Shown here: positions 5,791 through 54,109 of the stretch, piece after piece
Layout: each line of letters opens with the position of its first letter
How positions within the stretch are numbered: position 1 is the first letter of the stretch
Source: a virus
DNA: 64,000 nucleotides
Strand: one strand, 5' to 3'
IMG/VR virus record: IMGVR_UViG_3300029908_000016
Coordinates: 1 to 64,000 of that record
Notes under the pieces: generated by a model
Told to the model about the DNA's origin: nothing
What the model saw: the letters and a program-made list of their open reading frames with translations, nothing else
Databases searched by the model: none
Made by a program: the position numbers and the translations under genes

Positions 5791-5824
5791 CCCCTCTGTA
5801 GGGTGGATTAAAATTTGGTATAAT
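5791..5824 (+). promoter_or_regulatory. island-start promoter motif, copy 1
   Basis: CCCCTCTG 5791-5798 ... TTGGTATAAT with TATAAT at 5819-5824. Confidence 0.85.
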
Positions 5825-5829
5825 CTTTT

Positions 5830-5970
5830 ATGATAAACTTTTTAATCTTTGCAAATATATTTATGTTGGTAGCAAATACATTATGCCTTTGCTTATACGG
5901 TCAGCCTATATCTATCATCGGAATACTCTTTCCTCTTATGGGGTTAATATGTCTTGCTATAACGACATAG
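5830..5970 (+). CDS. 46-aa membrane peptide MINFLIFANIFMLVANTLCLCLYGQPISIIGILFPLMGLICLAITT
   Basis: Translated manually; ATG 5 nt after TATAAT; two hydrophobic segments. Confidence 0.65.
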   Translation: MINFLIFANIFMLVANTLCLCLYGQPISIIGILFPLMGLICLAITT

Positions 5971-5981
5971 CTATTAATATC

Positions 5982-6015
5982 AAGAGGTTCAATCCCTCTT
6001 TTTTTAGCTATCGGA
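5982..6015 (+). terminator. island-end motif, copy 1
   Basis: AAGAGG-TTCAATC-CCTCTT-TTTTTAGCTATCGGA. Confidence 0.85.
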
Positions 6016-6043
6016 AGTTAGTATATCTTGATAACATTGGTGT

Positions 6044-7147
6044 ATGAATTTACGATATTTGCTAAAAAAGAATTTATTGCATAAGGTTGGATTTGATTTT
6101 GAGGATTTTAATGATAAAGGTCAAGTCACTGCACATTCACAGGGGTATAACGAAATGTTTAATCCTCCCCCTACCCCTGCCCCAACTGCTCCAACTCAAA
6201 CAATGGGTGATCCTCATGATACAGAAAAATATGGTCCTCGCTTAAGTGGAACAAAAGGTTATTTAGACATTAATGGTATACCCTTCAATGATTTACCATC
6301 TGGTCAAGCCGGAAAAATGATTCCCGGTACGGTGACCTCTCCTTTTAGTTCTACAAATCTAAATACTTTAAATAATGAAAGTAATAAAGCGCAGGCTGAT
6401 ATGAATCAGCAAGTAGCTAATACAAATTTTGATAAATCACACCCAGGTATTCAATCCATTCCTGAATATAAAGATATAAGTTCTCCTGGCAATTTAACAA
6501 CTAGTAATCCAAGTACTACACCTACACAAGTAGCTTCTAATTTACCAGTGACTAATCCTCCTGCTCCAACTCAAACAATGGGTTCTCCCCCTCCTTCAGG
6601 TGGGGGAATGAAATCACCATCTGTCGGTGCTCCTGCAGCAGGTACGGTTTCGGCATCTGGTAAACCAATCAGTAAAACATCGGAATTGAATGAAACACAG
6701 CGTTTTGCAATCGGATTCATCAAATCAGCAATTGATAATGGGTTAAATGAAAATCAAGCTATTCATTTGTTACATAAAATATCAAATGTAAGCCCAATGC
6801 CTGGGGCATCAAATATGCTTGGTAATGCTGTAAATAAAATGAAAAACATTGCTCCAGGATTACAATATACTCCAAAACCTCAGAATACTCCGAATAATGT
6901 ACAGGGTAATATCTCTTCAATGGCGCAGGCTGCTCCTCCAATCGCCAAACCCGTACAGCCAATTCCAAGTCTAGCTACTAATCCAGGACAACAGGATTTA
7001 CAGCAATTTGAACAACAACAAAGAACAAAGATTAATCCTAATATTACTCCCCTAATTAATAATCAAGTTGACCAACAATTAACTAATTTACCTCCTTTAC
7101 AAGCTCAAGAGTTGATTAGATATTTACAAAGTAAGCAAATGCAGTAG
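6044..7147 (+). CDS. putative virion/internal protein (Pro/Gln/Asn-rich)
   Basis: 367-aa low-complexity ORF. Confidence 0.55.
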   Translation: MNLRYLLKKNLLHKVGFDFEDFNDKGQVTAHSQGYNEMFNPPPTPAPTAPTQTMGDPHDTEKYGPRLSGTKGYLDINGIPFNDLPSGQAGKMIPGTVTSPFSSTNLNTLNNESNKAQADMNQQVANTNFDKSHPGIQSIPEYKDISSPGNLTTSNPSTTPTQVASNLPVTNPPAPTQTMGSPPPSGGGMKSPSVGAPAAGTVSASGKPISKTSELNETQRFAIGFIKSAIDNGLNENQAIHLLHKISNVSPMPGASNMLGNAVNKMKNIAPGLQYTPKPQNTPNNVQGNISSMAQAAPPIAKPVQPIPSLATNPGQQDLQQFEQQQRTKINPNITPLINNQVDQQLTNLPPLQAQELIRYLQSKQMQ

Positions 7148-7372
7148 ATTATAATTACATGATCATCCAATTCAAAGACTTGGAAAATAATGTTACTTAT
7201 TTAAGAATCGTTGAAGGTTATACACAATCGTTAATTAGTAAGCATGCTCACGCTTATTATAAAAAACAGTATAATGAAAATAAAGTTGATAATTTATCAA
7301 TTATTGAATTTGCTATTCGGCAGCAAATGATGGTTTTACTTACCGATGAGGAAGTCGAAGAATTAAAAGCTA

Positions 7373-8137
7373 ATGAAAAAACGTTCGAAAAATCTGGAAA
7401 ATAAAGCTGACAAAACATTAAGAGTTTATCAACGAGAAAAAATTGGCTTCGAATTAAAAATTGCTCAACCAAACTGGACGGAAAAACAATTAAGATATAT
7501 TGATATCATCAAGGACAAGAATACAAAAATCGTTCTTAACACTGGTCCTGCTGGTTCATCGAAAACTTTTTGTCCTGTAGCTGTAGGGCTGGATTTATTA
7601 AATACTGGCAGAGTAAAAGAATTTATTTATGTTCGATCCGTTGTGGAGTCATCAGGTACAGGCTTAGGTTATTTACCAGGTGAAATATCTTCCAAAATGG
7701 CTCCCTACGCCGAACCATTTCTGGACAAAGCTCGTCAATTATTACCTAGAGAACAGATTGATGAATTGATTAAAGATAAACGAATACAATTTATACCTGT
7801 AAATTTCTTAAGGGGTAGAGAATATAATGCAGCATTTGTGTTGATTGACGAAGCCCAAAATTTTAGTGAAAGTGAGTTGGCTACTATTTTAACTCGCTAT
7901 GGTACCGCTTCCAAAATGGTTATATGTGGGGATTATCTACAATCCGATTTGGAAAACTATCGTAAAGTGCCAAGCGGCTTTCGTCCTGTCTTTGATTTAT
8001 TTAATACTGAAGAATATGTGGCACACGGCATTCGATGCTTTGAGTTCGGCATTGAAGACATTAAAAGAGATCCAGTTATTGGTATAATTGTCGAAGCTTT
8101 CAAAAAACATAAATCCTCGCTCGCCAAACCTAAGTAA
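7373..8137 (+). CDS. phoH: PhoH family ATPase
   Basis: GPAGSSKT, LGYLPG, FLRGR, IDEAQN and GDYLQSD motifs. Confidence 0.93.
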   Translation: MKKRSKNLENKADKTLRVYQREKIGFELKIAQPNWTEKQLRYIDIIKDKNTKIVLNTGPAGSSKTFCPVAVGLDLLNTGRVKEFIYVRSVVESSGTGLGYLPGEISSKMAPYAEPFLDKARQLLPREQIDELIKDKRIQFIPVNFLRGREYNAAFVLIDEAQNFSESELATILTRYGTASKMVICGDYLQSDLENYRKVPSGFRPVFDLFNTEEYVAHGIRCFEFGIEDIKRDPVIGIIVEAFKKHKSSLAKPK

Positions 8138-8157
8138 ACTACTTAATATAGATATAT

Positions 8158-8850
8158 ATGGTTGCTGAAATAATCTCCGGTTTGATTCAAGGATTGTATG
8201 CTATTATCGATAGCATCATCAATTCAGGTCGTGCGAAAGAAACGGTCAAAGAACATATCGTTAAAAACGAATTTATTCATCAAAGGCTAGTAAATCTTTT
8301 ACATGATATTGAGGCTGATCGACTTAGCATTCGTCAATACCACAATGGAGGATATTATTATTCCGGCTTACCTTTGCAAAAGTATTCGTGTACTTACGAG
8401 GTTGTCACAGAAGGTATTTCCGCAGAATTACCAAATAATCAAAATAAATTAGTTTCCGAAACACCTACACTGCATTCTGCGATTATTAGAGAAAAAGAAT
8501 ATATTATTGAGAATGTTGATAATGTTACAGACATTACCTTTAAACAAAAATTACAAAATCGTGGAGTAAAAAGCTTCTATGCTCAAGGTATCTGGGATCT
8601 ACAAGATAATTTAATTGGTCTGTTATGTGTTGATTATGTGATTGATGAACATACGATTACTGAAGATGAGAGAATAGAATTGGATAATTTTACAAAATTA
8701 GTATCCGGTTATTTGGTGGCTTCTCCGTCCAAGCAACCAAAAAGTTTAGTAGTTACGGTAATGATATTTTCCATAGCTTTAACAATACTATTAAGTCAAA
8801 TCGCCTTTCTGATTTCAAGTATTTATAATTTACTTAAATTTTGGTTATAA
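8158..8850 (+). CDS. GAF-domain membrane protein (possible holin-like)
   Basis: ADR.SIRQYHNG...SCTYEVV...GLLCVDY GAF pattern, with C-terminal hydrophobic helix. Confidence 0.6.
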   Translation: MVAEIISGLIQGLYAIIDSIINSGRAKETVKEHIVKNEFIHQRLVNLLHDIEADRLSIRQYHNGGYYYSGLPLQKYSCTYEVVTEGISAELPNNQNKLVSETPTLHSAIIREKEYIIENVDNVTDITFKQKLQNRGVKSFYAQGIWDLQDNLIGLLCVDYVIDEHTITEDERIELDNFTKLVSGYLVASPSKQPKSLVVTVMIFSIALTILLSQIAFLISSIYNLLKFWL

Positions 8851-8853
8851 TCT

Positions 8854-11574
8854 ATGGCCTCCCCACAAATATTATCAGCTTTACCAATTCTAGGTGGAGC
8901 AACGGCAGGAGGAGCAGGATTTGCCAATTATATTCCAATTCTTAATGAAAGTGGACTATTAGATTTATCATTTTTTCCATCTTCTATAGTAGGTGATTTA
9001 CAGTATCAGGGTACATGGAATGCAAGTACCAACACTCCTACCTTAGCCAGTTCAGTAGGTACACAAGGATTCTATTATATTGTTTCAGTAGCAGGTAATG
9101 CTGTATTGGATGGTGAAACAAATTGGTTTCCTGGGGATTGGGTAATCTTTAGTGGTACAGTCTGGAATAAACTAGATGCGAATACTACTCAAGTGATATC
9201 TGTGGCAGGTCGAACAGGGGCCGTTACCTTAACAAGTGCCGACCTTACAGATGCTACTACGGCTGGTAAAGCAGCAATTACAGCCTCCAATTCGACGGGA
9301 ACAAATTATGTAGTTTTCAATAATTCACCTTCTTTTATAACACCTAATTTGGGTGTGGCTACTGCTACGAGTATTAATGGATTAACCATAACTACCAGTA
9401 CAGGTACATTGACTGTAGCAAATGGTAAAACTGCATATATTGGCAATAGTTTGAATTTTAGTGGATCAGATGGTGCATCCTTAAATATTGGAGCAGGTGG
9501 AACATTGGGTACAGGTGCGTTTAATCCAATATATTCATTACCACCAGCTACCAGTTTAGCATTGGGTGGTGTGATTATTGGTAATGGATTGAACATAAAT
9601 TCTGGTACTGTGTCTGTAGCTGTACTTGGTTCAGCTGGTTTAAGGTATAATAGTGGTAGTGGTGCAGATACAACCGCTACTAGCTCACAGTTGCAAACAA
9701 TTATTGGCGGTGGAGTTTATCAAGCACCTATAAGCTTAACAACTACAGGTAGTGGGGTGGCTACATTTTCAGGTAATGTATTAAACATTCCCAATACTAC
9801 CTATACATTACCAAATGCTACTACAAGTACATTGGGTGGTGTAATTGTAGGTAATGGACTGAATGTAACAACTGGTACTGTATCTGTAGCATATGGTACA
9901 ACCGCTAATACAGCTTTACAAGGAAGTTTATTGGGCGCAAATTCAGGTGTCGCGTCATTAACTGTAGGAGGAATTTTAACAACTTCTCAATTTCCAGCTT
10001 TAACAGGAGATGTTACCAATACAGCTGGTAGTTTATCGACAACCGTTGGTAAGATTAATGGTACTTCCTTGGCCTCGTTAGCATCTGGACTGTTATACAA
10101 TACAACAACTACTGGTGTACCGAGTATTGCTACCAGCAATCAAATACAGACTGTAATAGGTAGTAATGTTTACCAAAGTTATAACGCTAATACTACAACG
10201 TTAGGTAACACAACAACTGGCTCTGGTAATATTGTATTGGCTACATCTCCTAGTTTGACAACACCAAATATCGGAGCAGCTACTGCCACATCGGTAAATT
10301 CATTAACCATAACTACTTCGACAGGTACATTAAGTATTACTAATGGAAAAACAGTTACCGTAAATAATACTTTAACATTTAGTGGTACAGATAGTTCTAC
10401 ATTAAATATAGGTACAGGAGGTACTTTAAATACAGGAGCTTTTACAGCCGCTTATACTCTACCTAATTCTACTACAAGTACTTTAGGAGGTGTAATTGTA
10501 GGTAATGGATTGAATGTAACGACTGGTACTGTATCTGTAGCTTATGGTACAATCTCCAATACAGCTTTACAAGGTAGCACATTAGGAGCAGCTTCAGGTG
10601 TTGCCTCATTGACAGCCGGTAGTTTACTTACGACAGCCCAATTTCCAGCTTTAACAGGAGATGTTACCAATACAGCTGGTAGTTTATCGACAACCGTTGG
10701 TAAGATTAATGGTACATCATTATCAGGACTAGCTTCAGGTGTACTTTACAATACAACAACTACTGGTGTACCGAGTATTGCTACCAGTAGTCAAATACAG
10801 ACTGCAATAGGTAGTAATGTTTATAATGCGTATAACGCTAATACTACAACATTAGGTAACACAACAACTGGCTCTGGTAATATTGTATTGGCTACATCTC
10901 CTAGTTTGACAACACCAAATATTGGGGCAGCTACCGGAACGAGCCTGACGCTCACCTCTACCTCGGTGGCTCCTCTCACCGTCGATTACACCGGCACCAT
11001 TTCTGCCACCGGCATATTTCTCGAAGCACCGAACTTGGCCACGGGGTCTGAGGCAGCAATCAACATCGGACTTTCCACGACGACAAATAACCGTGTCTTA
11101 TTTCAATTTTACAACAACGGAGGAGCAGGATCATCTCTTAACTGCGGTTCACTAATCTTACAAGGTGCTACCAATGGTCTTTATGTTTTTGGTTCAGGTC
11201 ACATTTCCAACACCTCAACCGATGGTGGCAGTGCTCTTAACATAACAGGTTCACTTTCTGCTTCAAGCAATATTACGACGACGGGAGGTGCGTTTGTCAC
11301 TCAGTTTACTACGGGGGTATCGTCGTTCACGTTGACACCAGGGTTCAACACTTCGACAGGCTCAAATTCAAGCCAGACGGTGACGCTACCCGCACCTGCG
11401 TCAGGTCAATTAGTAATCTTTAAAAATGCGGGTAGCCAGACATGGACGGTGGCGAGCAATTCGGGCAGCCAAATTGAGGCTACAGGAGCGATAACAGCAA
11501 CCGCCACCACGACCGTTACATCAGGCACTTGTGTGCGTTTTTCTTCTGACGGCACCTATTGGTTCGAATGGTAA
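8854..11574 (+). CDS. tail fibre protein 1
   Basis: YQGTWNASTNTPTL, GDW and SVAGRTGAVTL motifs; Thr/Gly/Ser-rich internal repeats. Confidence 0.85.
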   Translation: MASPQILSALPILGGATAGGAGFANYIPILNESGLLDLSFFPSSIVGDLQYQGTWNASTNTPTLASSVGTQGFYYIVSVAGNAVLDGETNWFPGDWVIFSGTVWNKLDANTTQVISVAGRTGAVTLTSADLTDATTAGKAAITASNSTGTNYVVFNNSPSFITPNLGVATATSINGLTITTSTGTLTVANGKTAYIGNSLNFSGSDGASLNIGAGGTLGTGAFNPIYSLPPATSLALGGVIIGNGLNINSGTVSVAVLGSAGLRYNSGSGADTTATSSQLQTIIGGGVYQAPISLTTTGSGVATFSGNVLNIPNTTYTLPNATTSTLGGVIVGNGLNVTTGTVSVAYGTTANTALQGSLLGANSGVASLTVGGILTTSQFPALTGDVTNTAGSLSTTVGKINGTSLASLASGLLYNTTTTGVPSIATSNQIQTVIGSNVYQSYNANTTTLGNTTTGSGNIVLATSPSLTTPNIGAATATSVNSLTITTSTGTLSITNGKTVTVNNTLTFSGTDSSTLNIGTGGTLNTGAFTAAYTLPNSTTSTLGGVIVGNGLNVTTGTVSVAYGTISNTALQGSTLGAASGVASLTAGSLLTTAQFPALTGDVTNTAGSLSTTVGKINGTSLSGLASGVLYNTTTTGVPSIATSSQIQTAIGSNVYNAYNANTTTLGNTTTGSGNIVLATSPSLTTPNIGAATGTSLTLTSTSVAPLTVDYTGTISATGIFLEAPNLATGSEAAINIGLSTTTNNRVLFQFYNNGGAGSSLNCGSLILQGATNGLYVFGSGHISNTSTDGGSALNITGSLSASSNITTTGGAFVTQFTTGVSSFTLTPGFNTSTGSNSSQTVTLPAPASGQLVIFKNAGSQTWTVASNSGSQIEATGAITATATTTVTSGTCVRFSSDGTYWFEW
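9802..10940 (+). repeat. internal in-frame duplication, 651-bp offset
   Basis: TTTCCAGCTTTAACAGGAGATGTTACC at 9991 and 10642; GTAATTGTAGGTAATGG at 9841 and 10492. Confidence 0.9.
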
Positions 11575-11706
11575 TTTTCTTATTTATACTCATTATGGTC
11601 ATTATATTACAACGCGTTAAATACTTTAATGACTGCCTTGGGTAGAACAATTCCTACTTAATTTCCTTGTTTAACTGATTTAATAAATTTATACTAATCA
11701 TATTAT

Positions 11707-14700
11707 ATGGCCACTCCTCAAGTGTTAGCATCATTACCAATTTTAGGTGGAACAACAACGGCTGGATCTTCTGCTTACGCCAATTATATTCCAATTCTTA
11801 ATGGAAGTGGACTATTAGATTTATCATTTTTTCCATCTTCTATAGTAGGTGATTTACAGTATCAAGGTACATGGAATGCGAATACCAATACACCTACATT
11901 GATCAGTTCTACAGGAACAAAAGGATTCTTTTATGTAGTAGCGACAGCGGGTACTACGACATTAGATGGTATTTCTATTTGGAATATTGGTGATTGGGCA
12001 ATATTCAATGGTACGACATGGAATAAACTAGATGGAGCAGCTGCTCCTGTTACATCTGTGGCAGGTCGTACTGGGGCTGTAACTTTAACAAGTAATGATT
12101 TAACAGACGCAACATCAATAGGTAAATCATTAATTACATCCTCAACAACTTCGAATGCTCGTAGTACAATAAGGGCTAATAATGTATATTATAGTGTTAC
12201 AGTCAATTCGGGCTTAACAAGTTTAATAGGTTCTGATGGCTTAAATAATGTAAACAGTTATACTTTTCAAGCAGGATCGGGGGCTTATACCTATGTTATT
12301 AATTTATCTGCCGTAAGTGCAGCTAATGGTGATGTAATCCAAATTTTAGCAAATCTACCAGCTTCGACAAATCCGACTTTACAGGTTTATGATCAAGCCA
12401 GTACTACGTTATTAACTAACTTATTAAGTAATGGAACAGCTACAGCTATTACGTTAAGTTATGTATTTAATGGCAGCAATTGGGTAGCTTTCAATACTGG
12501 TGCCTTGTTAGCGTATAATAATTTGAGTGATCTGACATCTACTTCAACAGCCAGAACCAATTTAGGATTGACCGCATTAGCTACAACCACACCAGGTACA
12601 GGTGTTGTTGCGGCTTTAGGGAATTCAGCAAACATAACTGGAGGTTTCGCGTTAGCTCCCTCTTATTCTTCGAGCTTCACTTACTCCGCTGGAGCACTTG
12701 CAATCGGCTCTGACGGGAACACCTATCGGGCTTTAGGTTCCACAACGGGGAATGATCCAACGACGGATGCAGGAACCAACTGGGAACTCGCGCTAGTGAA
12801 GGTCAATACGACACTCAATATTCCGTCGCGTTTTTCGACTATTGCCACTGCTTGGACTTTCTTGAAAAACGCAACGATTGTATCTGCTGCAACGGCGACA
12901 ATGAAGGTTGCCGATGGGACTTACAATCTAGGTACGGTTCAATATATTTTCAATCACCCGCAAGGAGCTAACATCCAGTTAATAGGTAATACAACAACCC
13001 CTGCGAACTGCGTCTTGAATGTCACGGGCATTGGTTTCACTCCCTCGGGTTACGTTCAAAATAACTGGGGCTTTATTTGTGTTAATCAAGGGCACTCGTT
13101 TGGGCTTATTGATGGTTTCACGATGAACGGGCCTGGGCATGCGGCATCTAATTTTTATGGGACGATGGGGATACTGGCCAGCGATCACTCTTTTGTCGCG
13201 CTCGGGAATCACGTGATAATCAATAATTTTTATTCTGGCTGGGCGGCTTTCTACCATTCGGAATTTAATGGGGGATCGGGCAACACCGTGACCGGTGGCG
13301 GTGACGGAAACATCTGGGCATATATGGGATCACACATATATGCCGATCATTTGACGACCTCGGGCGCATCGACTTTCTATTCTCAATCCGGCGTCTTGCT
13401 GGAGCACGGTTCTAGCGCCTTTTTGTCGAATCTGACGACGCAAAATAACGGGGTACCTTCTAGTCCGTATAATGGAAATGGAATCCTGCTGACCTTCGGC
13501 TCGACGGTTTGGTGTCAGTATATGACTAATTCCGGTAACAATATTGGAATTAGTGTTGGTGATGGTTGCAGTTTCGATGACAGCAACGCAACTTATTCAA
13601 GCATCGGAACGACAAAATATGCGACGGTAAATACCACTCTTGGTCTTAATCCTGGTACTGGTGCCATCGCGCAGAACGCAACCAACGCAACTTATTCTCT
13701 GACCACGGCTTCTTCTGTGAATCCTTTTTCCGTAACAGATACTGGAACAACAAATGCTTTGGCTTTGGCTACCTTTTTTCAGCCTAACCTGCCTTCCAAT
13801 GATTATAACTATATTGGTGGTGGAGCATCGACGGGAGGTTATGGGTGGTCTTTAGGATTTACCAACGCGAGTACGACGCCCTACGCCTGGTTTGCGAACA
13901 ACAACGGGGCAAGCGGCATCGCTTTCTACAAGAATGGCGATACGACGATTGGAGGTTACGGTGCTGATCTTGGCTATCCTATTGGACTCAATGGCAACAC
14001 TAACGTCAATGGTACCTTGTCGATTAATGGTAATACTTTAACCGCATTAGCTACAACCACACCAGGTACAGGTGTTGTTGCGGCTTTAGGGAATACCTTG
14101 AGCGGGCCGGGTGGGGTGTACGGGCTGGGCAGCGATGGAGGCGCGACTTTCCCTTATGGCATTTCTCAGATTGGAGCGACAACGGGAATGGCTTCGTCTG
14201 CCATCGGCAACGTCACATGGTTTGTCAACGGTGGCCCAACGGGATATTCTTCCGCAGGCGACTCGACGGTGATTTTCGCCAACCTGTCGTCTAGCTCATC
14301 AAATTCCGGGGCCGGGTTCACGAATTCGGTGGCGACGGTGGCTGGGGTTTATGGAGTGTGTTCATGGAGTGCAGGAACGAACACGTTGACGCTGGCGGGG
14401 GCCTCTACGACGCAAAACGGGACGCTTTCTTCGTCCAGCACGGCGGTCACGCTTTCGGCGAGCAATAGTTCGATTGCGGTGGGACAGTGGGTATCGGGAA
14501 CGAATATCGCCTATGGGACGCGTGTTACGGCGATTTCAGGAACGAGCCTGACCCTCTCCATCACTCCAACAGGCAACGGGGTCTCACTCTTGAGCTTTAC
14601 GCCATATGTCGTCAACGTCGGAAGTAATGTGACCAGTATAGCGGTCGGCCAGATGGTTATGGGCAAAGGCATCTACAACGGCACGACGGTTTCCTCGATT

Positions 14701-16320: not shown

Positions 16321-16333
16321 AAAATAAAAAAAT

Positions 16334-17718: not shown

Positions 17719-17726
17719 CTTTATAT

Positions 17727-17854: not shown

Positions 17855-17890
17855 CCCCCCTCTGTAGAGTGAATCGAATTTTGGTATAAT
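17855..17890 (+). promoter_or_regulatory. island-start promoter motif, copy 2
   Basis: CCCCCCTCTGTAG ... TTGGTATAAT, TATAAT at 17885-17890. Confidence 0.85.
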
Positions 17891-17895: not shown

Positions 17896-18003
17896 ATGGA
17901 TAATGCATATAAAGAGACATTAGTTTTTGGCGCAATCGTTGTTGCAATGATGGTGATTATAACAATATTGTTTCTATCCCTAATTCGTATATTTGGTAAC
18001 TAG
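17896..18003 (+). CDS. 35-aa membrane peptide MDNAYKETLVFGAIVVAMMVIITILFLSLIRIFGN
   Basis: Translated manually; ATG 5 nt after TATAAT; one hydrophobic helix. Confidence 0.65.
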   Translation: MDNAYKETLVFGAIVVAMMVIITILFLSLIRIFGN

Positions 18004-25201: not shown

Positions 25202-25261
25202 ACTCAAAAATACAATTATTAAAATAAAATAATTATTTATGCGTATCGGTGAATACGCAGG

Positions 25262-25301
25262 AACAGGGAGGTTAAATCCTCCCTGTTTTTTAGCTATTGG
25301 A
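25262..25301 (+). terminator. island-end motif, copy 2
   Basis: AACAGGGAGG-TTAAAT-CCTCCCTGTT-TTTTAGCTATTGGA. Confidence 0.85.
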
Positions 25302-26253
25302 AAGCATGATAATCAACCGTCAATAAATCTTGGAGCTTATTACCACCAGCATACGATATGCTGCTCTGTAAATGCTCTTCAAAGTATTTCATTTTCTCAA
25401 GGTAGGTAGAGTTATTCAAAGGTACCATTGTCGATTTACCTTCAATATGGGTTAATGATTTTTTTCCATTTGAAGAAGCAGAACCATAATAATGTTTACT
25501 ATCTCCAGTATAGCTGTCCAACCTAGCAGGTGAATCATTACAAGCAGCAAACAAACTACCTATCATAATCATTGTATAACCAGCTACCAGCCCTTTTGTA
25601 ATATCACCTGGACATTGTACTCCCCCATCACCAATTAATGGTACTACGGAAGCATTGGAAGCTTCTACCCCTGCACTAAACATTGGGCTAGTAAATCCTG
25701 TGCAATCATAAGTTGTACAAGCCAACCCCATACCTATTCCAACTTTGATGGCATGAACACCCCAGTACTGTAAATTGATAATTGAGTCATAATCACCTGC
25801 TACATTACCAGCAATAATCTTAACTTCAGGTAAATTATGTCGAATGAACTCAATCATTTCATTCATTAAACGACAATAACCATGAGCAATATCAATAGTA
25901 ATGATTAGAGAATGTTGATTATAAGGTGTTAAAATATTCCTTAATTTGGTAAGAAAATCTCGATCTTTATCATTTACACCAACGGATAAGGAAAATATAA
26001 ACTTTGAATATTTATTAGCCATTTGGTTTACCCATTGAAGAATATCATGTGGTTCGTAAAAACGATGGAGTATGTAGAAATATCCATTATTATACAATTC
26101 TTCAGCCAAACGAAAGTCTATAACACATTCCATATTTGCAGGAATGATAGGAGCTTTAAAGGTATGCCCTAAAAATGAGACAGAAGTATCAGCCAATGAT
26201 CTACTCGATAATTGGCTATATTTTGGAGTTAGGTAAATATCACTATATTTCAT
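25294..26253 (-). CDS. guaC: GMP reductase
   Basis: PIIPANM, IDIAHG, IAGNV, KVGIG.G.ACTT, IGDGG, YYGSAS and SSISYAG motifs. Confidence 0.9.
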   Translation of the reverse strand: MKYSDIYLTPKYSQLSSRSLADTSVSFLGHTFKAPIIPANMECVIDFRLAEELYNNGYFYILHRFYEPHDILQWVNQMANKYSKFIFSLSVGVNDKDRDFLTKLRNILTPYNQHSLIITIDIAHGYCRLMNEMIEFIRHNLPEVKIIAGNVAGDYDSIINLQYWGVHAIKVGIGMGLACTTYDCTGFTSPMFSAGVEASNASVVPLIGDGGVQCPGDITKGLVAGYTMIMIGSLFAACNDSPARLDSYTGDSKHYYGSASSNGKKSLTHIEGKSTMVPLNNSTYLEKMKYFEEHLQSSISYAGGNKLQDLLTVDYHAFQ

Positions 26254-45457: not shown

Positions 45458-46801
45458 ATGTTTGTAAATTACGATGAGTTTAAAAAATACTCAAAAGGTT
45501 CTGGAAGGAAAGTTGAAATAACTTGTGAAAAGTGTAAAAAAACAAGACTTAAAACAGTTGCAGAATTATATAAATTTAATAGACATTTGCCAGACTCCAC
45601 ACATGGCTGCGTGCACTGTAAAAAAGATGTCGCAGAAAGAAATAATTTATTAAAATATGGTGTAAAGAATACATCGCAATTACCTGAAGTTAGAGCAAAA
45701 CATAGAGCATCTTGTTTAAAAAACTTAGGTGTAGAATTCCCTATGCAAAATAAGGACGTACAATCTAAGAATAAAAAAACAAATTTAATACGTTATGGAG
45801 TAGAATGCTCTCTTCAAAATCCTGAAATTAGAAAGAAAAGTTTAACTACATTATTTAATAATTATGGGGTAGATAGCGCAAATAAAAATGAAAGTATAAA
45901 ACTAAAGGGTATAAAAACTAAATTAAGAATATATGGAACATTACATCCTAGGATTAATAAAGAGGAGAATAAATTAAAGGATTTTTTAAATTCTTTTGGG
46001 TTTAATTTTATTTCTGATTATGACTTATTAAGTGGTAAAGAAATAGATGCTTACGACATTAATCTAAAATTGGGGATAGAGTATTGTGGGCTTTATTATC
46101 ATAATGAGCTATCTCCCAACCCGAGAGATAAAGATTATCACAATAATAAAAGATTAAAATGTGAAGCCCAGGGAGTTAGACTAATTACTATATTTGAAGA
46201 TGAATGGAGACGTAGAAACAGCCAAGTTAAAGGTTATTTAAAGGCAATTTTAAATAAAACAAATTTTAAGATATACGCTCGAAAATGTTTAGTTAAGGAT
46301 ATAGATAAAAAAGAAGCTAACGCCTTTATCAATAAATACCATATACAAGGAGCAAACCTTTTAGGTATTTATTTTGCAGGATTGTATTATAAAGAAGAAT
46401 TAGTTGGAGTTATGAGTTTTGGAAAACATCCTAGAAACTTTCGAAAATTAACTTTAGATCGTTTATGTTTTAGAGAAGATTATTCAATAATAGGAGGGGC
46501 TTCTAAGATGTTTGTCTATTTAACCAAAAAATTTGATATACACGAGATTATTAGTTGGTCGGATAATCGATGGTCGCAAGGTAATGTGTATAACGCTTTA
46601 GGATTTAACTTAGACGAAGAATTACCTCCAGATTATAGCTACGTATATATTAAAAATCCTGTAGAACGTTTATCTAAACATTCTCAAATGAAAAGAAATA
46701 CTAAGTGTCCTATTGATAAAACAGAACTAGAGTGGGCAACTGAAAGAGGGTTAGCAAGAATTTGGGACTGTGGTAAAAAAAGATGGATATGGAAATCGTA
46801 A
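45458..46801 (+). CDS. Hef-like free-standing homing endonuclease
   Basis: Zn finger, (K/R)YGV repeats, EID.Y...GIEY.G.YYH nuclease motif, IYARKC...IWDCG C-terminal domain. Confidence 0.8.
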   Translation: MFVNYDEFKKYSKGSGRKVEITCEKCKKTRLKTVAELYKFNRHLPDSTHGCVHCKKDVAERNNLLKYGVKNTSQLPEVRAKHRASCLKNLGVEFPMQNKDVQSKNKKTNLIRYGVECSLQNPEIRKKSLTTLFNNYGVDSANKNESIKLKGIKTKLRIYGTLHPRINKEENKLKDFLNSFGFNFISDYDLLSGKEIDAYDINLKLGIEYCGLYYHNELSPNPRDKDYHNNKRLKCEAQGVRLITIFEDEWRRRNSQVKGYLKAILNKTNFKIYARKCLVKDIDKKEANAFINKYHIQGANLLGIYFAGLYYKEELVGVMSFGKHPRNFRKLTLDRLCFREDYSIIGGASKMFVYLTKKFDIHEIISWSDNRWSQGNVYNALGFNLDEELPPDYSYVYIKNPVERLSKHSQMKRNTKCPIDKTELEWATERGLARIWDCGKKRWIWKS

Positions 46802-47485: not shown

Positions 47486-50400
47486 TTAATTATTGATTAA
47501 ACTGTCTACGTATTCTTTTACAGCAGGGTGAGATAATAGTTTTTTTGTACGCTCATCTTCTGCTTGAATTGTATTTTCTTGTTTCGTCGCTACGGATACA
47601 GGTTTCTTGTTTAATTGATTATCAATGATCGCACCTGTCACTAATGAAGACAAGTTATGTTTAGCAGTTTTGGACTGCCCAAAATATTGAGGAATGATTG
47701 GTTGTCTTGGAATATAACCATTATTCATCGGGTAGCTTCCCATTGCTCCCTGAGAAGGTTGAGAAGTAGGATTATCGGTTTGGCTGTTCAATAACCCATA
47801 CGCGATGGGTAACATCAAATACGGAGCAGCTTCACCCATCAATCCTTTAACCATATTCTCACCACCTGTTAATGTATTATTAATGGTTGTGGATAAACCG
47901 TTAGGTTGCATCAATGGTTTTACGTTGTTGTAAATATTTTCGGCAGAAGACACACCTGGTATCTGTTTGAGATAATCGTTAAACCCAGAAAGCTTATTCA
48001 TTAAATTGCTTCAATATTAACATTCAATGGACTATTTGAAGAACGATGTTCTTCTTTACCTATATTACTTTTTAAAATAATAGAGGCTAATGTTGTTGCT
48101 AATAATGGTTTATCAACAAAATCTTCTCTTACTTTCTGAGAAGATGGAAAATGCTTGGTTACAGGATGTGCCAAATTCTTTAAGCTTCTACTCAGTGCAC
48201 CATCAGAAATTGTTTCTTCAGCAGATTTCTCAATAGCCTTTAACATACCTATACACATTGCATCAACATGAGGAACATCCATTTCATCCAATGAAGCTTT
48301 CTTTTCTCTGGTTAACGCTTTCAAATAATCTTCATGAGCTTTTTCCAATTCTTTATGAAGATTGTTTTTCTTATAGCTATAATGTTCAGTTTCTTTTTCT
48401 TTGAAGCCTTTATAGATATGACCAATGTTATTCAAATGTTCTGTTAAGGAAGCTTTCTTGGCTTGCTGTAAGCGTTCTTTTGGAAGTTTGATTACAAATT
48501 TTTCTTCCTCTTCTTCTTTACGAGGTTCATTCAATATGTTCTTTAATTGAATACCACCATACAATCCCTTTCCTAACAAATAAGAATGTATACGTTTTTC
48601 TTCAGGTGAAAGGGGTCGTTCGGTCATAAAATTAATCTTCTGGTATTATCAAGGCAGGTTTTTCGGAATCAAGATCTTCAAGATAATGACTAACAATTAC
48701 ATACTTGCTGGTCACATTACTAAAATGGCTTTCCCATTTCGTTACATAATAACGAGGACTATTGATTAGTTCTTCGTAAAGCTTCTTTTCTTCAGGAATC
48801 GTAATATCAAATATTTGGACGTGGTTCTTGAAATTGGAAAATTTTTTCTTTTTTTGTTTGATACCCTTTTCTTCTTCAAAAGCATCAGCAATTTCTTCGT
48901 TTGATCTTCCTCCAAAACCAACCTTCTCAAATATTTCTTTTTCAAAGTCACGGTCATTCCGACGTTTGACTTTCAAATCGGACAGTTCACCAGCGTCATA
49001 AGCATCAACTACAAAAGATTCAGTATTAGGATTCATGTTCTTGATTAATTTTATTTGTTAATTTCTTTAACAAATTAATCTTGTCCTGATAAGTTTTCAA
49101 CTTTTTATTTTTTTCTGATATATCTTTGTCTAGATGTTCATAACCTGTAGCCATCCCATAACCACCCAAAGCAAGTGTACCCGCATACGCGCCTCCTGCC
49201 TTTGCACCAATGTCCAGAGGATTGAGCTTATCAAGGAAAGCGAGCTTCAATAAACTAGCTGCTTTTGTAACACCTGCTTCTGTGTGCATCGCCTGCAAAG
49301 CGTTTTCAAGCTCTTCCAATGAAGAACCTTGTTTTTCGAGATTTTCCGCAAAATTGGCTTTAAGTAGATTTAGAGGGTCCATGATTATTTAATAAACTAT
49401 TACTTATGATAACCCCAGCACCAAAGCCAGCCAAGGATAAAAGAATTTGTGTCTCTTTTTTAAATTGCAGAAATCTTGAAATTGCCAAGGCTGTCAAAGC
49501 ACCAGTTGAGCCTATAAATAAATTTTCTAAGGGATGTGGATTATCAATTATGGATAATATATGATTACGAGCATGATCGTCAACATGAGGATCGAGAGCA
49601 ACCAAAGTCGATAAATGTTGTCGATTGGTTGCTTCATTTAATATCTGTAAAGTATTATTCATATTAAACAGGACTAAAAGAAGCACTCGCTGCAGGTGTT
49701 AAAGCACCTTTTCCACCATAATACAAAGCCATGATTGTTGCTAACGGAATACCATAATCCATCAATTTTGAAACTAACGGATGTTGCACATCAAATGGGT
49801 CATTGTCCTTACGATTTTTATTTAACAGATAACTAGCTCCCATTGCACCCCCTGCAACAACCGGAGCAGGTAGATTTGTAAAATTATTAAAGGTATTTAC
49901 AGCCCCAGAGTATATATTAGCTGTTTTATTGATATCCACTTGTTCAGCTATTAAATCTTTAATCTGCTTATTGATTTTCTTTTTTAAAATGGCTTTCCAA
50001 ACATTCTCATTTTGATGCTTTAAAGTATAAGTAGGATTACGTTTACCTTCGTGCAGCGTAATATACAACTGACCAGGATGACTACGATGTACTTGCGCAG
50101 TACGTTCATGTGTAGCGATATTTGAATAATTATTATCGTTTAATCTTTTGATTTCGAAAGAATGATTGTCTTCTTCTTTGTCGGGTACCAATTTATCAGG
50201 GAATGAAAAACTATAAATTGTCTCTCCATTCTTTAAAGATAGTTTACCATCCTTATGCTTATATTTCCAATTTTGCTGATTATTGGAGAATGGAAAATGG
50301 GATGTTACTTCATGACTGGGTGGAAAGTCGAGGACTTCAGCCAATTTATAAAGTAATATCGCTTTTCCAAAATTCATGATTATTAAGGATAGGAATGTTC

Positions 50401-51693
50401 ACCCGATAAAGCAGCTATTGAATCAGGTGTGATTGTACCTGACTGTGGATAACCTGCTCCATATCCCGGATTTAACATTCCTCCAAAATTACCTTCGTTA
50501 TTTTTAATATTTGATAACAATGAAGGAAGATACTTATCACCACCATAAGCCCCTAATAATGTGGTAGCTAATCCAGGTAAACCAGATAGACCATAATGTT
50601 TCGCTAACAACATCGCTCCCAATCCACCTGCCAATGTTCCTGTCCAACCATTGTCCAATCCAGGAATTAAATCATTTTGTTTTGATATAGGATCTGCAGG
50701 ATTAGTATTCGTACCACTGATGTTATCTTTAATCCCCTGTTCCACCCCACCGGTAATACCTGAATAATCCAATAACTTTTTACCCCCATATAATGCACCT
50801 GCCCCAATAGCTCCTGCTGTACCAAGTTGTCGAGCACCGTATCGAGCTAATAAAGCTGCTGGAGCAGCAGCGGCTGTACCAATTGGTCCAAACATTGCAC
50901 CAGTTCCAAGTATTGAAGCAGGTGCCATATTACGTTCAATGAATCCTCGATTACCTTCTCGGTTCGTACCGTTCCATAACAAATCAGTTAATGAGTTATC
51001 TAACGGAGCTTTACCAATTAGTTTATTAAATAATGTTGGATCGGATGGTTGTGGAGTGGACTCTGGTGTTGATGTATTTACAGGATTGGATTTTCCTTTA
51101 TTGGAATAAGCTTCTTCTGCTGCATTTCGAGCATCAATACCTACAGGTGCTTGTAATCCTGGTTCTTTGTTTTGTGGGGCATAAGAGGTATTATCAATAT
51201 CTGTGGATGCTGCGTTAGATTGTGCCCTTGCTCTTGCTCGGTCATAAGTTGGATTTACCGATGTAGGTTGTTTCACAACCTTTGCTGGGTTTACGATTGG
51301 GTCAGGGCGTAAATATTTTCCAAATGATCGTTCAATTTGTGTCATTCTTGGCAATGCTTGTTCAATCGCAGGTAAAGCTGCATCACCCAATTCTCCAAGA
51401 CCTGCTGCGTTTTTAAATAACTTTTCTGCTGTATCGAATACACCTTGAATATATTCTTTTGAATAGCCGGATTGTATAGCAGCTATCTTAAATTGTTTCT
51501 GAAAATGCATTGAAGCTTTTTTTAGCTCTTCAATTGGATTTTCAATTTCTCCAATCTCATAAGATATCTTTGTAAACAATGCATTATCAGATAGTTGGCT
51601 ATCAATATACTCTTCTGCCTTTTTTTGAATGGAGGATAGAGAATGTAATAAAGGATAAATAAAGGGAGGAAGAGTTTCCATATACTTAATCAA
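47486..51693 (-). other. operon of seven putative internal virion proteins (47486..48001, 48001..48627, 48632..49036, 49026..49382, 49360..49686, 49664..50377, 50383..51693)
   Basis: Tightly coupled ORFs, several with glycine-zipper segments and recurring K-x-(A/S/G) motifs; co-oriented with beta-N. Confidence 0.6.
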
Positions 51694-51736
51694 TACTAGC
51701 AGAATTTTGATATCGTCTACAAGTCATTAGATTTGA

Positions 51737-51772
51737 CCCCCTCCCAGAATATTCATTATAAATTGGTATAAT
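51737..51772 (+). promoter_or_regulatory. island-start promoter motif, copy 4
   Basis: CCCCCTCCC ... TTGGTATAAT, TATAAT at 51767-51772. Confidence 0.85.
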
Positions 51773-51815
51773 AAGTTGTGAAGGATTTTACTTACTCAAT
51801 TAATATACAAAAATT

Positions 51816-52034
51816 ATGAAAAACAATACAAATAATGAACTAGATGTTTACTACACAATACGGTTATTAACTATAACATGGTTATTATTTCTTACAATTA
51901 TACCAGCTATTATGTTGCTTCTTGATGGAACAATTGATGTTTCAGTAGCTAAAGATGTTGAGTCAGCGTGCTTGTCAATGTGCATGATTCTAATGGCTTT
52001 GGAATGCATTCTCAAATTAATAATCTCAGAATAA
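51816..52034 (+). CDS. small two-helix membrane protein
   Basis: Two hydrophobic segments; first gene after promoter copy 4. Confidence 0.65.
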   Translation: MKNNTNNELDVYYTIRLLTITWLLFLTIIPAIMLLLDGTIDVSVAKDVESACLSMCMILMALECILKLIISE

Positions 52035-52046
52035 TCAAATAAATAT

Positions 52047-52484
52047 ATGTTAACCGAACAACAAAAACAAGAAACCATCGAAGCGATTACACATTTCATC
52101 AAAACAGGAAGTACAAAAGGTATTGAAGTTTTTTATGAGAACAAATGGAATGCATTGGAAAACTATGTAGTGCCTCAAGTAAATTTTTTTAACAGCTATT
52201 TACCTCATCGATTAATCAAAAAAAAAGTTAAGGTAATTAATCGTTATCAACTTCCAAGTGTTATTTGGGTGTCTTCCAATGATTTTATTAAAAGTGCAAT
52301 GGTTGATCGTATTTTTGATAACAGCTTGCAATTGACTTTCTCTATTCATATCGACAATGACTATGTATCTGTAATACATCTTACAGACAAAGAGGAAGAC
52401 CTTCGAGTGTTAAGGCAGTTAAAATATTCATCTACGCATACTCCAAGTCCCTGTGATATACACTCCTTCATAATTGAAGAATAA
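52047..52484 (+). CDS. hypothetical protein
   Basis: ORF track. Confidence 0.65.
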   Translation: MLTEQQKQETIEAITHFIKTGSTKGIEVFYENKWNALENYVVPQVNFFNSYLPHRLIKKKVKVINRYQLPSVIWVSSNDFIKSAMVDRIFDNSLQLTFSIHIDNDYVSVIHLTDKEEDLRVLRQLKYSSTHTPSPCDIHSFIIEE

Positions 52485-52828
52485 TTTGGAACGACATAAC
52501 GTTGTTCCGTTAACCAACAACACAACAACAAAGGACGATATGTTCATTCGTGGTGTCTACTGGACTCGCAGTGAATGGTTGGATTATATTCATAATCGAT
52601 GACCGATTGTGAATCAACACATCCCACTACGGTCATTCCGTAGTGGGTAATATTACAACACTTTATGGAAGATATAAATAATTACGAATTCTACAGCTAT
52701 TCATTAGATGCGTTGAAAATGTTGGTGGATTTACGTTGGATACGTATCTTTGAAAGAGATAGCCTATATGATTGGAAAACCGAAATAAAACATTATGAAA
52801 ATTGTAATATCATCGAATAATCAACATT

Positions 52829-53263
52829 ATGGGTACAAATTATTATAGCATTGTAAAGGAATCAGAAGAATGTCCTCACTGTAATCACAGTACTCCTCGA
52901 ACGGAAAAACATATTGGAAAATCCTCTTTTGGATGGTGTTTTCAATTACATGTTTATCCCGAAGAATCCATCAATAGTCTGAATGATTGGCTACCATATT
53001 TTGACAAATACATCATTGAAGATGAGTATGGAAAAACAGTTTCCAAAGAAGATATTCTGAGAATTATTACCGAACCTAAACGGTCGAATAATCGAAATAA
53101 TTCTTCATCACAAATAGGATCATCATTAATTCGAAGCCAATTTCTAGACCACTATCAGGCTGTCGAAGGGCCATATAATCTATTGAGATCAAGAATCGAT
53201 AATACTCATTGTATTGGGCATGGAGAAGGTACTTACGATTATATCGTAGGAGAATTTAGTTAA
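52829..53263 (+). CDS. conserved phage protein (MGTNYY...HIGKSS.GW.F family)
   Basis: Motif recognition. Confidence 0.7.
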   Translation: MGTNYYSIVKESEECPHCNHSTPRTEKHIGKSSFGWCFQLHVYPEESINSLNDWLPYFDKYIIEDEYGKTVSKEDILRIITEPKRSNNRNNSSSQIGSSLIRSQFLDHYQAVEGPYNLLRSRIDNTHCIGHGEGTYDYIVGEFS

Positions 53264-53273
53264 CCCCTCCCCA

Positions 53274-53309
53274 CCCCCCTTGGAGGATTAGGCTACAAAT
53301 TGGTATACT
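53274..53309 (+). promoter_or_regulatory. island-start promoter motif, copy 5
   Basis: CCCCCCT ... TTGGTATACT, TATACT at 53304-53309. Confidence 0.8.
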
Positions 53310-53341
53310 AGTATATCAGGAAAGGATTTATCTCTTGTGAG

Positions 53342-53764
53342 GTGAATTCTGGAAAACAAAAACAACGAAAGGATCATATGATTAATATCGACGAACTCAC
53401 ATTAAAAGATATCAAAGCAATTCAACAAATTGTTGTTCCAACGATTGGAACACCTAACCATAATACTAATCCAGATCAACCGTATCACCCAATGTTGGGT
53501 AAACGTTGTTTGGTACGTACTTACAGTGCAGGTGTACACATTGGGGATATCTCTTATGTGAACGGTATGGAAGTGAAATTGACAAATGCACTGCGCCTGT
53601 GGAAATGGGAAGGCGGCGGTTTGTCGTTGTCGGCAATTGCCAATGTTGGAATGAAAGGTGGACGTATCGACGTAACCAATGAAGTATACCTCACCAATGT
53701 AATCGAAATTATCCCCACAACCAAGGAAGCAGAAAAAACCTATGTCAAATTCATTGAAAAATAA
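53342..53764 (+). CDS. DUF6948-like protein
   Basis: LVRTYSAGVH.G...LTNALRLW.W.G..SLS.IA...IEIIP.T; start probably at the later ATG. Confidence 0.75.
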   Translation: MNSGKQKQRKDHMINIDELTLKDIKAIQQIVVPTIGTPNHNTNPDQPYHPMLGKRCLVRTYSAGVHIGDISYVNGMEVKLTNALRLWKWEGGGLSLSAIANVGMKGGRIDVTNEVYLTNVIEIIPTTKEAEKTYVKFIEK

Positions 53765-54065
53765 ACATCATGGCCACGATTTACATCATGGCCACGATTT
53801 AAAAGATGGCTCTGATGGCTCTGATGGCTCTGGCTCTGGCGATGGCTCTGGCTCTGGCTCTGGCGATGGCTCTGGCTCTGGCTATGGCTATGGCGAGGGC
53901 GAGGGCTCTGGCTATGGCTCTGGCTATGGCGATGGCTATGGCTATGGCGATGGCTATGGCTATGGCTCTGGCTATGGCTCTGGCTATGGCTCTGGCTCTG
54001 GCGATGGCTATGGCTATGGCTATGGCGATGGCTATGGCGATGGCGATGGCTCTGGCGGAGGTTAA
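53742..54065 (+). CDS. Gly-X repeat protein (GS/GD/GY)
   Basis: Hexamer microsatellite (TCT/GAT/TAT)GGC at 53805-54057, preceded by an 18-bp duplication at 53765-53800. Confidence 0.65.
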   Translation: MSNSLKNKHHGHDLHHGHDLKDGSDGSDGSGSGDGSGSGSGDGSGSGYGYGEGEGSGYGSGYGDGYGYGDGYGYGSGYGSGYGSGSGDGYGYGYGDGYGDGDGSGGG

Positions 54066-54069
54066 TGGC

Positions 54070-54109
54070 AAAATGAGGTTCCACCCCTCATTTTTTAGCT
54101 ATCAGACAG
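54070..54109 (+). terminator. island-end motif, copy 3
   Basis: AAAATGAGG-TTCCACC-CCTCATTTT-TTAGCTATCAGACAG. Confidence 0.85.

Follow-up and report, generated by a model that had tools for sequence, protein, structure and literature searches.

The window analyzed here is a 64,000-nucleotide (nt) stretch of viral DNA, the first 64 kb of the 81,005-bp IMG/VR record IMGVR_UViG_3300029908_000016 (G000; CheckV completeness estimate, 40%). Its intergenic regions contain two repeated motifs, a promoter-like left motif (L) and a terminator-like right motif (R), and we describe here their anatomy, their distribution and their possible origin. A first-pass annotation of the sequence had described L and R as the boundaries of islands of small genes and had proposed that they are the ends of mobile cassettes. 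Scans with each motif also identified a second record, G001 (IMGVR_UViG_3300029908_000017; 74,376 bp; CheckV completeness estimate, 36%). In reverse complement, the first ~460 bases of G001 (1-463) match a 24-nt tandem repeat at window 1-156 (94-99% identity), and the G+C content of G001 and of the window is nearly equal (0.345 and 0.357, respectively). Because the terminal repeat and both motif families are shared and the G+C content is similar, we take G001 as an adjoining fragment; it likely belongs to this genome or to one nearly identical to it, with the reverse complement of G001 placed before G000. Statements about strand are valid inside each contig, independent of this joining. The 24-nt repeat lies inside an open reading frame (ORF) that is open at the window edge, and it is probably an assembly break between two fragments of one genome.

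L consists of a C-rich box (C-box) followed, after 17-21 nt, by the extended -10 sequence TGGTATA(A/C/G)T, with five copies in the window and six on G001. The window copies, one related sequence outside the class and the two ORFs discussed with them are as follows.

5791..5824, plus strand: L1, with C-box CCCCTC (5791-5796), a 19-nt spacer and the extended -10 TGGTATAAT (5816-5824)
5830..5970, plus strand: hydrophobic ORF of 46 amino acids (aa), predicted to be driven by L1, without a Pfam match
17855..17890, plus strand: L2, with CCCCCCTC, 19 nt and TGGTATAAT, beginning 17 nt past a tRNA-Tyr gene
17896..18003, plus strand: 35-aa hydrophobic ORF with a single transmembrane segment, following L2
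20428..20463, plus strand: L3, with CCCCCCTC, 19 nt and TGGTATAAT, in the divergent gap beyond the minus-strand AAA ATPase gene 19220-20386
51737..51772, plus strand: L4, with CCCCCTCCC, 18 nt and TGGTATAAT, in the divergent gap beyond the minus-strand gene 50383-51693
53260..53377, plus strand: L5 promoter-leader module, with TTAACCCCTCCCCACCCCCCTTGG, TGGTATACT (53301-53309) and a ~70-nt leader up to the ATG
8079..8088, plus strand: TTGGTATAAT, a copy without a C-box, inside a PhoH-like ORF and outside the L class

The 10-mer TTGGTATAMT occurs exactly at six positions in the window (5815, 8079, 17881, 20454, 51763 and 53300), and five of the six have a C-box (CCCCTC or CCCCCCT) 18-21 nt before the TGG, at 5791, 17855, 20428, 51737 and 53264/53275. 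By itself, the 10-mer is not enriched (18 matches with ≤1 mismatch vs. 17.8 expected). Across the 155 kb of G000 and G001, the composite of C-box and extended -10 has 11 copies, all on the same strand, with none on the opposite strand; in 200 Markov-1 simulations, the count averaged 0.02 and never exceeded 1. The five plus-strand window copies reported in the first-pass annotation are confirmed. The six G001 copies (68696, 61942, 60881, 59310, 12490 and 2711) are all on the G001 minus strand, which corresponds to the window plus strand after joining. All 11 copies are intergenic, that is, within the 5-6% of DNA outside called ORFs, and the most enriched intergenic 7-mers are C-box and TGGTATA words.

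At the -10 position, all 11 L copies have a consensus extended -10. Counting back from this element, the C-box falls at about -40 to -35, and a TTGACA-like -35 is absent; a consensus promoter scanner of the sigma70 type (TTGACA/TATAAT) does not list the L sites. Extended -10 promoters are able to function without a -35. None of the L copies contains a conserved hairpin. At both L1 and L2, an ATG is located 5 nt past the -10; therefore, the mRNAs of the 46-aa and 35-aa ORFs are predicted to be probably leaderless.

R consists of a hairpin, a run of six T residues and the tail AGCTATYRGA, with three copies in the window and two on G001 (R4 at 68216 and R5 at 11312). The window copies and the two genes that converge on them are as follows.

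5982..6027, plus strand: R1, with hairpin AAGAGG-TTCAATC-CCTCTT, a T-run and the tail AGCTATCGGA to 6015 (-5.9 kcal/mol), then a -10-like TAGTAT (6019-6024), with the next plus-strand gene from 6044
25261..25301, plus strand: R2, with an 11-bp-stem hairpin, T6 and AGCTATTGGA (-21.8 kcal/mol), ending the plus-strand unit 20428-25301
25294..26253, minus strand: IMPDH/GMP-reductase-family gene (PF00478, 2.2e-43), convergent on R2
54070..54106, plus strand: R3, with hairpin AAAATGAGG-TTCCACC-CCTCATTTT, a T-run and AGCTATCAGA (-12.8 kcal/mol)
54095..55054, minus strand: candidate Rep_1-like (HUH) gene of 319 aa, adjoining R3

In agreement with the three right-hand sites of the first-pass annotation, TTTTTTAGCTATYRGA occurs exactly at 6000, 25286 and 54091, each time preceded by a hairpin, and the whole 81-kb record contains three forward and zero reverse copies. 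When ≤2 mismatches were allowed, there were five matches vs. 0.58 expected, a number reached in 0 of 100 shuffles. A census of hairpins followed by T-runs, on both strands of both contigs, identified 22 terminator-like candidates, of which five have the tail (window 5982, 25261 and 54071; G001 68216 and 11312). These five are among the 13 hairpins on the strand of the L copies, whereas none of the nine hairpins on the other strand has a tail. Tail-like sequences lacking a hairpin are present at about the level expected by chance: TAGCTATYNGA was seen five times vs. 0.6 expected, and three of those five are the terminators themselves.

Four of the five tail-bearing hairpins share the core GAGG-TTCNANC-CCTC with a 7-nt loop, and R5 has a different, 16-bp stem with the tail TTTTTTAGTTATCAGG. 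The folding energies of R4 and R5 are -6.5 and -18.7 kcal/mol, respectively. R2, R3 and R5 fold far below their shuffles (z-scores from -3.8 to -5.9; R2, -5.9; R3, -3.8), and R1 is moderately below (z-score, -2.25). The anatomy of an intrinsic terminator is present, with a G/C-containing hairpin and a T-run directly after it, just downstream of a stop codon. Two of the window hairpins begin 6-12 nt past a plus-strand stop, and the third begins ~180 nt past the last called ORF. A degenerate sixth R-like site, at G001 60342, has a weak hairpin followed by TTTTTTAGTTATTAAC, TATATT, GGAAGG and an ATG.

The tail overlaps coding sequence at some sites. The R2 tail overlaps the stop codon of the GMP-reductase-like gene, called guaC in the first-pass annotation (CTA, 25294-25296), and the R3 tail overlaps the last codons and the stop of the Rep-like gene (TTA, 54095-54097), in a different frame, as that annotation had noted. 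Across the R copies, the stops of convergent genes overlap the tail in two frames (R2 vs. R3 and R5), and the tail is noncoding at R1 and R4. Because of the different frames and the noncoding copies, protein coding does not explain the conservation of the tail. This earlier argument holds overall and needs one qualification: the R3 tail does encode the C-terminal LSDS of the Rep-like protein, which is kept in its only close homolog (60% identity).

The two motifs are paired in one direction only. For every R (5/5), the nearest upstream promoter is an L and all intervening ORFs are on the same strand, giving the L/R pairs 5791/5982, 20428/25261 and 53274/54071 in the window and 68696/68216 and 12490/11312 on G001. 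Conversely, of the 11 L units, only five end at an R; one ends at the degenerate R-like site, two run into the next L, two stop against convergent genes without an R, and one reaches the repeat at the contig end. The interpretation given in the first-pass annotation is supported in part. Because R implies L and not the reverse, the layout is that expected for the promoters and terminators of one class, not for the end pair of a transposable unit. The islands at 20428 and at 51737/53274 are runs of plus-strand genes set among blocks on the minus strand, starting divergently and ending convergently.

The L units contain mostly ORFs of <150 aa without family matches, and none of 10 first or early ORFs has a Pfam match. 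The first-pass description of units of small genes between a promoter-like left and a terminator-like right element is thus consistent with their anatomy. Small complete units are located between larger genes at 5791-6015 (225 bp) and 53274-54106 in the window and at 68696-68185 and 12490-11280 on G001. The smallest of these, 5791-6015, had been described as a 46-aa ORF with its own promoter and terminator between two virion-type genes; the ORF is present at 5830-5970, and the virion-type label was not supported, as neither flanking gene (4968-5789 and 6044-7147) has a Pfam or PHROG match.

Near-identical DNA is present in peat metagenomes from 23 studies. In contigs assembled from four peat runs and aligned to window positions 5500-25450, we found no joints at any L or R end, with the limit that assembled contigs drop rare forms; contigs from three of the runs cross 5791-6015 without a joint. 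One candidate joint, 16332 to 20498, was not counted because its short side has only 20 letters and is A/T-rich. Four loose ends (20402, 20456, 20494 and 20526) and a back-joint from 24975 to 20494, with 18 letters between, form a cluster at L3. This cluster could reflect mosaic relatives or paralogs in the unsampled part of the genome.

Homology among some copies extends well beyond the motifs. The L copies at window 53264, G001 60881 and G001 68696 share the invariant 24-mer TTAACCCCTCCCCACCCCCCTTGG, and the homology starts right after the upstream gene. Window 53260-53377 aligns to G001 60885-60768 with 85.6% identity over 118 nt, through the ~70-nt leader to the ATG. The ORFs that follow these three copies are unrelated to each other (E value of 3.2 or higher, or no alignment), and one of the three has a family match (DUF6948). 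Based on 1-kb windows (mean, 0.352; standard deviation, 0.038), the G+C content of 0.46 in the two leader-sharing units (53274-54106; G001 60881-60330) is ~2.7 standard deviations above that of the genome. Similarly, the intergenic spacers at R1 and R4 align from the hairpin to ATATCT, ahead of unrelated proteins. Judging from these alignments, whole intergenic modules recur beside unrelated genes, which fits the analogy drawn in the first-pass annotation with the PeSL promoter/stem-loop cassettes of T4-type phages. Active shuffling by means of such modules may occur, as for PeSL. A dedicated mobilizing enzyme is unlikely, and nothing that we found indicates that L and R are the left and right termini of a mobile element.

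When metagenome contigs were scanned for the R pattern, nine loci were returned, one of which is G001. Six of these loci resemble ordinary terminators followed by AGCTAT, which by our estimate is about the number expected by chance. Two loci, L129 and L134, come from a single assembly, have a G+C content of 0.43-0.47 and lack tblastx similarity to the phage.

Short metagenome contig, about 490-580, minus strand: L129 composite
Short metagenome contig, 100-150: L134 composite

In both, the order is GAGG..TT..CCTC, T5-7, AGCTAT and TAAG(C), followed by TGGTATAAT or TGGTATAGT. In L134, CCCCTC is located 19 nt before the TGG, which is the spacing of L1-L3; because an R-type hairpin and this C-box spacing coincide, the L134 site is predicted to be an R-type terminator and an L-type promoter at once. 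When the R copies are aligned on the tail, the following hexamers occupy the corresponding -10 position.

R1: TAGTAT
R2: CATGAT
R3: CGGATT
R4: TTAAAT
R5: (TGT)CAAAAT

An A at position 2 and a T at position 6 are kept in four of six sites, when TATATT at G001 60342 is included. We give this apparent resemblance little weight, as it was noticed post hoc in AT-rich DNA. From the alignment of both motifs with the composite sites, we conclude that the C-rich 3' arm of the hairpin would be the counterpart of the C-box and that the T-run plus AGCTAT would be the counterpart of the promoter spacer. In this interpretation, L and R would be the promoter-proficient and terminator-proficient forms of one composite terminator-promoter module and not two different ends. 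The matched pair of left and right ends proposed earlier was not retained, given 11 L copies vs. five R copies plus one degenerate copy and one architecture common to both. That the conserved tail is the spacer half of this module is possible, and we put it forward tentatively.

The phage encodes a multisubunit RNA polymerase in pieces. In gene 57505-60471, Rpb2 domain 6 (8e-51) precedes Rpb1 domains 1 and 2; Rpb2 domain 3 is found in gene 39792-40487. The arrangement of gene 57505-60471 is that of a fusion of the beta C-terminal domain (Rpb2_6) with beta-prime N-terminal domains. The closest cultured match of the polymerase fusion is in Salmonella phage Arash, with 31% identity across 92% of the protein. 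Among the proteins detected in Arash virions, the homologous polymerase subunit is described as the most abundant, and they include a sigma-like protein (PMC10585845). The Arash genome (180,819 bp) contains 0 copies of L and 0 copies of the R tail. A phage sigma factor candidate was not retained here: there was no Sigma70_r2 match, the weak r4 match is a helix-turn-helix (HTH)-DUF559 nuclease, and approximately one-quarter of the genome is unsampled. Most of the remaining proteins have no family match or match only families of unknown function.

Anatomy, distribution and the homology of modules beside unrelated genes are direct observations, and with somewhat better than even confidence we interpret them to mean that L signals the start, and R the end, of transcription in a single class of short small-gene units in a novel RNA polymerase-encoding phage. 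L would be a promoter in which a class-specific C-rich box replaces TTGACA upstream of a near-consensus extended -10 (TGGTATAAT or TGGTATAGT), and the C-box might be read by a phage factor or by an unusual sigma region 4. R would be an intrinsic terminator, with a GC-cored hairpin, a 7-nt TTCNANC loop and a U-tract, that closes an L-driven unit. Both would descend from a composite in which the C-rich 3' arm stood at the place of the C-box, the T-run and AGCTAT formed the spacer and the -10 came next; R copies would have retained the hairpin, with a weak or decayed -10, and L copies would have retained the -10 and lost the hairpin. Whole intergenic modules may then have spread to the junctions of unrelated genes by duplication or homologous recombination, as proposed for PeSL, which would produce insulated, self-expressed cassettes of small genes. 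Promoter and terminator activity, the timing of expression, the polymerase used and any recombination are predictions of this model.

Several observations weigh against this model. Promoter and terminator activity is predicted from anatomy. R1 and R4 are weak hairpins, and R4 has a z-score of only -0.66, with 47 of 200 shuffles folding equally well. The -10-like hexamers at R sites are weak, R3 has none, and a downstream promoter would have no obvious use at three convergent junctions. AGCTAT is absent from the L spacers, so the case for a common origin of L and R is drawn from geometry and from two short contigs of one assembly. Conservation is higher in the tail than in the stems of the hairpins, and R5 differs in its hairpin and shares the tail; this conservation beyond the stems fits a separate function of the tail. 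The R3 T-run and tail recur as an exact 17-nt copy, lacking a hairpin, on the plus strand at G001 7543-7559. Finally, we found no relatives in which a single gain or loss at a module could be seen. Within a 593-aa ORF of the opposite strand, the G001 7543-7559 copy encodes DDFFSYQT, and we estimate from base composition that ~1e-4 copies are expected.

If L and R were static regulatory signals only, their likeness would come from recognition by one polymerase or factor, with no movement or recombination, and the surrounding genes would have diverged or been replaced independently. We consider this unlikely, with an appreciable probability all the same. It is consistent with the peat-run contigs, in which the L and R ends showed neither indels nor empty sites nor circle junctions and in which 5791-6015 is spanned joint-free in three runs. 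It is also consistent with the lack of L and R-tail copies in Arash, which has the closest RNA polymerase found and which thereby points to lineage-specific signals, and with the conserved, nonmobile promoter and terminator motifs that giant phages normally have. However, the homology crosses parts without obvious constraint, such as the ~70-nt leader that is ~85% identical before unrelated ORFs; the R1 and R4 spacers match past the U-tract; the homology begins and ends sharply at gene borders; and the two leader-sharing cassettes are GC-richer than the genome. A different role for the tail is improbable in our judgment. It would then be a signal of its own, either a termination or release element for the phage polymerase or a protein-binding site, instead of a vestigial spacer. 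Retention of the tail in 5/5 copies, including R5 with its different hairpin, irrespective of opposite-strand coding and in different frames, argues for such a signal, as does its confinement to the terminators of L-driven units; terminators of phage 201phi2-1 are also described as bearing conserved sequence motifs (PMC11512511). On the other hand, the canonical mechanism ends the RNA before the tail, in two unrelated contigs strong L-type promoters have this same tail in their spacer, and no candidate binding protein was identified.

The first-pass annotation had suggested that the adjacent HUH Rep serves the cassette ends. The 319-aa Rep-like protein has one relative at 60% identity and seven more distant relatives among 1.8 billion representatives. 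Their alignment conserves a cysteine cluster (Zn-cysteines) and the motifs FYHIT, HLHCII and RYLCK in the Rep order (motifs I, II and III). In the ESM Atlas, its neighbors are Rep_1 clusters (97-99% Rep_1), with a feature score of 0.96, a TM score of 0.55 and a model pLDDT of only 0.53. The query itself matched 0 Pfam families and no PDB sequence, and one of eight aligned homologs touched Rep_1 (PF01446) at an E value of 0.0041, below the cut-off. The HUH Rep-like label is a reasonable lead, and membership in Rep_1 is a candidate assignment only. A tail-like 14-mer is located near the gene.

55121..55134, plus strand: tail-like 14-mer TAGCTATTCGACAG, 67 nt upstream of the Rep-like start, without a T-run or hairpin

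The significance of this 14-mer is doubtful, as ~10 other chance pairs of 14-mers in the same 1.7 kb are as good as the pair flanking the Rep-like gene, and the tie between the gene and the motifs is weak. A Rep-like paralog at the hairpin-less tail copy on G001 was sought with tblastn and none was found; that site is within a plus-strand ORF. The two 319-aa convergent genes were also considered as paralogs and rejected (E value, 0.62).

In its strongest form, the HUH proposal holds that the hairpin plus TAGCTATYRGA is the recognition or nick site of a Rep_1-like endonuclease that mobilizes or copies DNA between same-strand copies. We regard this as very unlikely. The Zn-cysteines and the ordered motifs, the resemblance to Rep_1 clusters, the location of all hairpin-bearing copies on one strand and the 14-mer upstream of the gene would all fit such an enzyme. 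Yet the query lacks a Pfam family and its one homolog that touches Rep_1 falls below the cut-off, equally good 14-mer pairs are frequent in that region, and hairpin-less copies are not above chance, so the earlier proposal found no support. Moreover, the bias to one strand is already explained by all L-driven units sharing that strand, and the R3 tail encodes the conserved LSDS, which makes its position at the Rep gene partly a coding matter. Rep-catalyzed strand transfer between copies would release or copy promoter-equipped cassettes, with termination as a second use of the hairpin; we think it most improbable. If the HUH proposal were true, it would mean an HUH-driven cassette system within a large double-stranded DNA phage.

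HUH systems that act on hairpin-plus-flank sites include rolling-circle Rep_1 plasmids, IS200/IS605 and REP/RAYT. The sequences described here resemble them in that a hairpin flanked by a conserved sequence recurs on a single strand, beside a gene with HUH-type motifs; unlike in those systems, the motif copies follow the ends of transcription units instead of the ends of elements, and our statistics give no link between gene and motif.

Returning to start and stop signals that spread as modules, the kind of system is already known, as it is PeSL-like; this variant is set apart by the C-box, by the conservation of the tail and by separate promoter and terminator forms. PeSL are described as composite terminator/promoter sequences whose stem-loops "generally involve GGGG...CCCC" (PMC2839356, PMC4122927). 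As described there for T4-type phages, the modules in the window are conserved and intergenic, extending from the upstream stop to the downstream ATG. PeSL join a strong sigma70-like promoter with a G/C-cored terminator stem-loop, and here we observed a sigma70-like -10 and terminator anatomy. Furthermore, the modules in both cases adjoin small orphan genes, and the same module is found beside unrelated genes, as expected for insulated, self-expressed cassettes. In contrast to PeSL, promoter and terminator are mostly separate here, with L lacking a hairpin and R having only a weak -10; the only ~100-bp elements that join a stem-loop and a promoter are those of L129 and L134, along with a degenerate one at G001 60342. 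A C-rich box takes the place of the -35 hexamer, and a conserved tail extends past the U-tract. Unlike the phages that carry PeSL, this phage is not of the T4 type and has a multisubunit RNA polymerase of its own. Whereas PeSL were defined by indels between relatives and by mini-circles, the likeness here is drawn from sequence modules.

Lambdoid morons are described as single genes with their own promoter and terminator between core genes (PMC2839356). The units 5791-6015 and G001 68696-68185 are similarly self-contained expression units between larger genes; however, the flanks of morons are not conserved from moron to moron, whereas the flanks here are repeated families. Giant phages with their own polymerases are described as having conserved promoter and terminator motifs (AR9, PMC5312081; 201phi2-1 and phiKZ, PMC11512511). 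L and R resemble those motifs in that the promoter motifs of one temporal class are long and highly conserved and the terminators share sequence motifs. The early promoters of those phages differ in being AT-rich (in AR9, AAATATATATTAT-N6-G; PMC5312081), whereas L has a C-box and a bacterial-type extended -10.

If the favored interpretation is true, a deep-branching RNA polymerase-encoding phage arranges its orphan genes as insulated promoter-gene-terminator units, like T4-type phages, with signals that differ in the C-rich box for the -35 and in the conserved terminator tail past the U-tract. One promoter class and one terminator class could then derive from a single composite module, and the occurrence of this module in two unrelated contigs would suggest either a transcription machinery in common or transfer of the module from phage to phage. 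It would also provide a compact set of candidate promoter and terminator parts. The finding does not show a new type of mobile element.

Close relatives were sought in several ways. Megablast of window positions 5000-12000 against a phage collection found none; neither did searches of viral contigs with 6044-7147 or 50383-51693 as queries or a search of metagenome contigs with the Rep-like alignment. A 20-mer from the L5 module was found nowhere in IMG/VR but in G001. A loose L pattern matched at least 118 stretches of viral contigs; each of the 80 matches listed was single, and only G001 was related among the matches listed. The pattern "TTTTAGCTAT plus TGGTATART" matched 13 loci in viral contigs, about the number expected by chance, and was set aside; two distinct sequences among these loci are ordinary TTGACT or TTGATT promoters. 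The R pattern was likewise rejected as a host signal, with six unrelated matches in 596 Gb of genomes, which is at chance level.

The R hairpins resemble tRNA T-arms (window 5987-5999 and 54075-54089; G001 68216): four of five have a TTCNANC loop closed by a G-C pair, and the L134 counterpart is GAGGTTCGACCCCTC. A tRNA-derived origin was rejected, as the tRNA covariance model finds only the three true tRNA genes of the window and no match at an E value of up to 1 in 51600-55500, which includes R3. Just upstream of R2, a second hairpin, TGCGTAT-CGGTGA-ATACGCA (window 25239-25262), is followed by T-rich sequence when read on the minus strand, which makes it a possible terminator for the GMP-reductase-like gene that converges on R2. 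Upstream of R3, a 12-nt tandem repeat (GGCTATGGCGAT-like, ~13 units) at 53904-54062 encodes the Gly/Tyr/Asp/Ser-rich tail of ORF 53742-54065; Rfam matches at 53924-54048 are microRNA models on this repeat and were dismissed as spurious. Elsewhere in the record, window positions 45458-46801 and 60455-62113 encode paralogous DUF7487 proteins with Mom-like or Vsr-like domains, and 71949-73025 of G000, beyond the window, encodes an HTH-DUF559 nuclease-like protein; all three may be free-standing nuclease genes.

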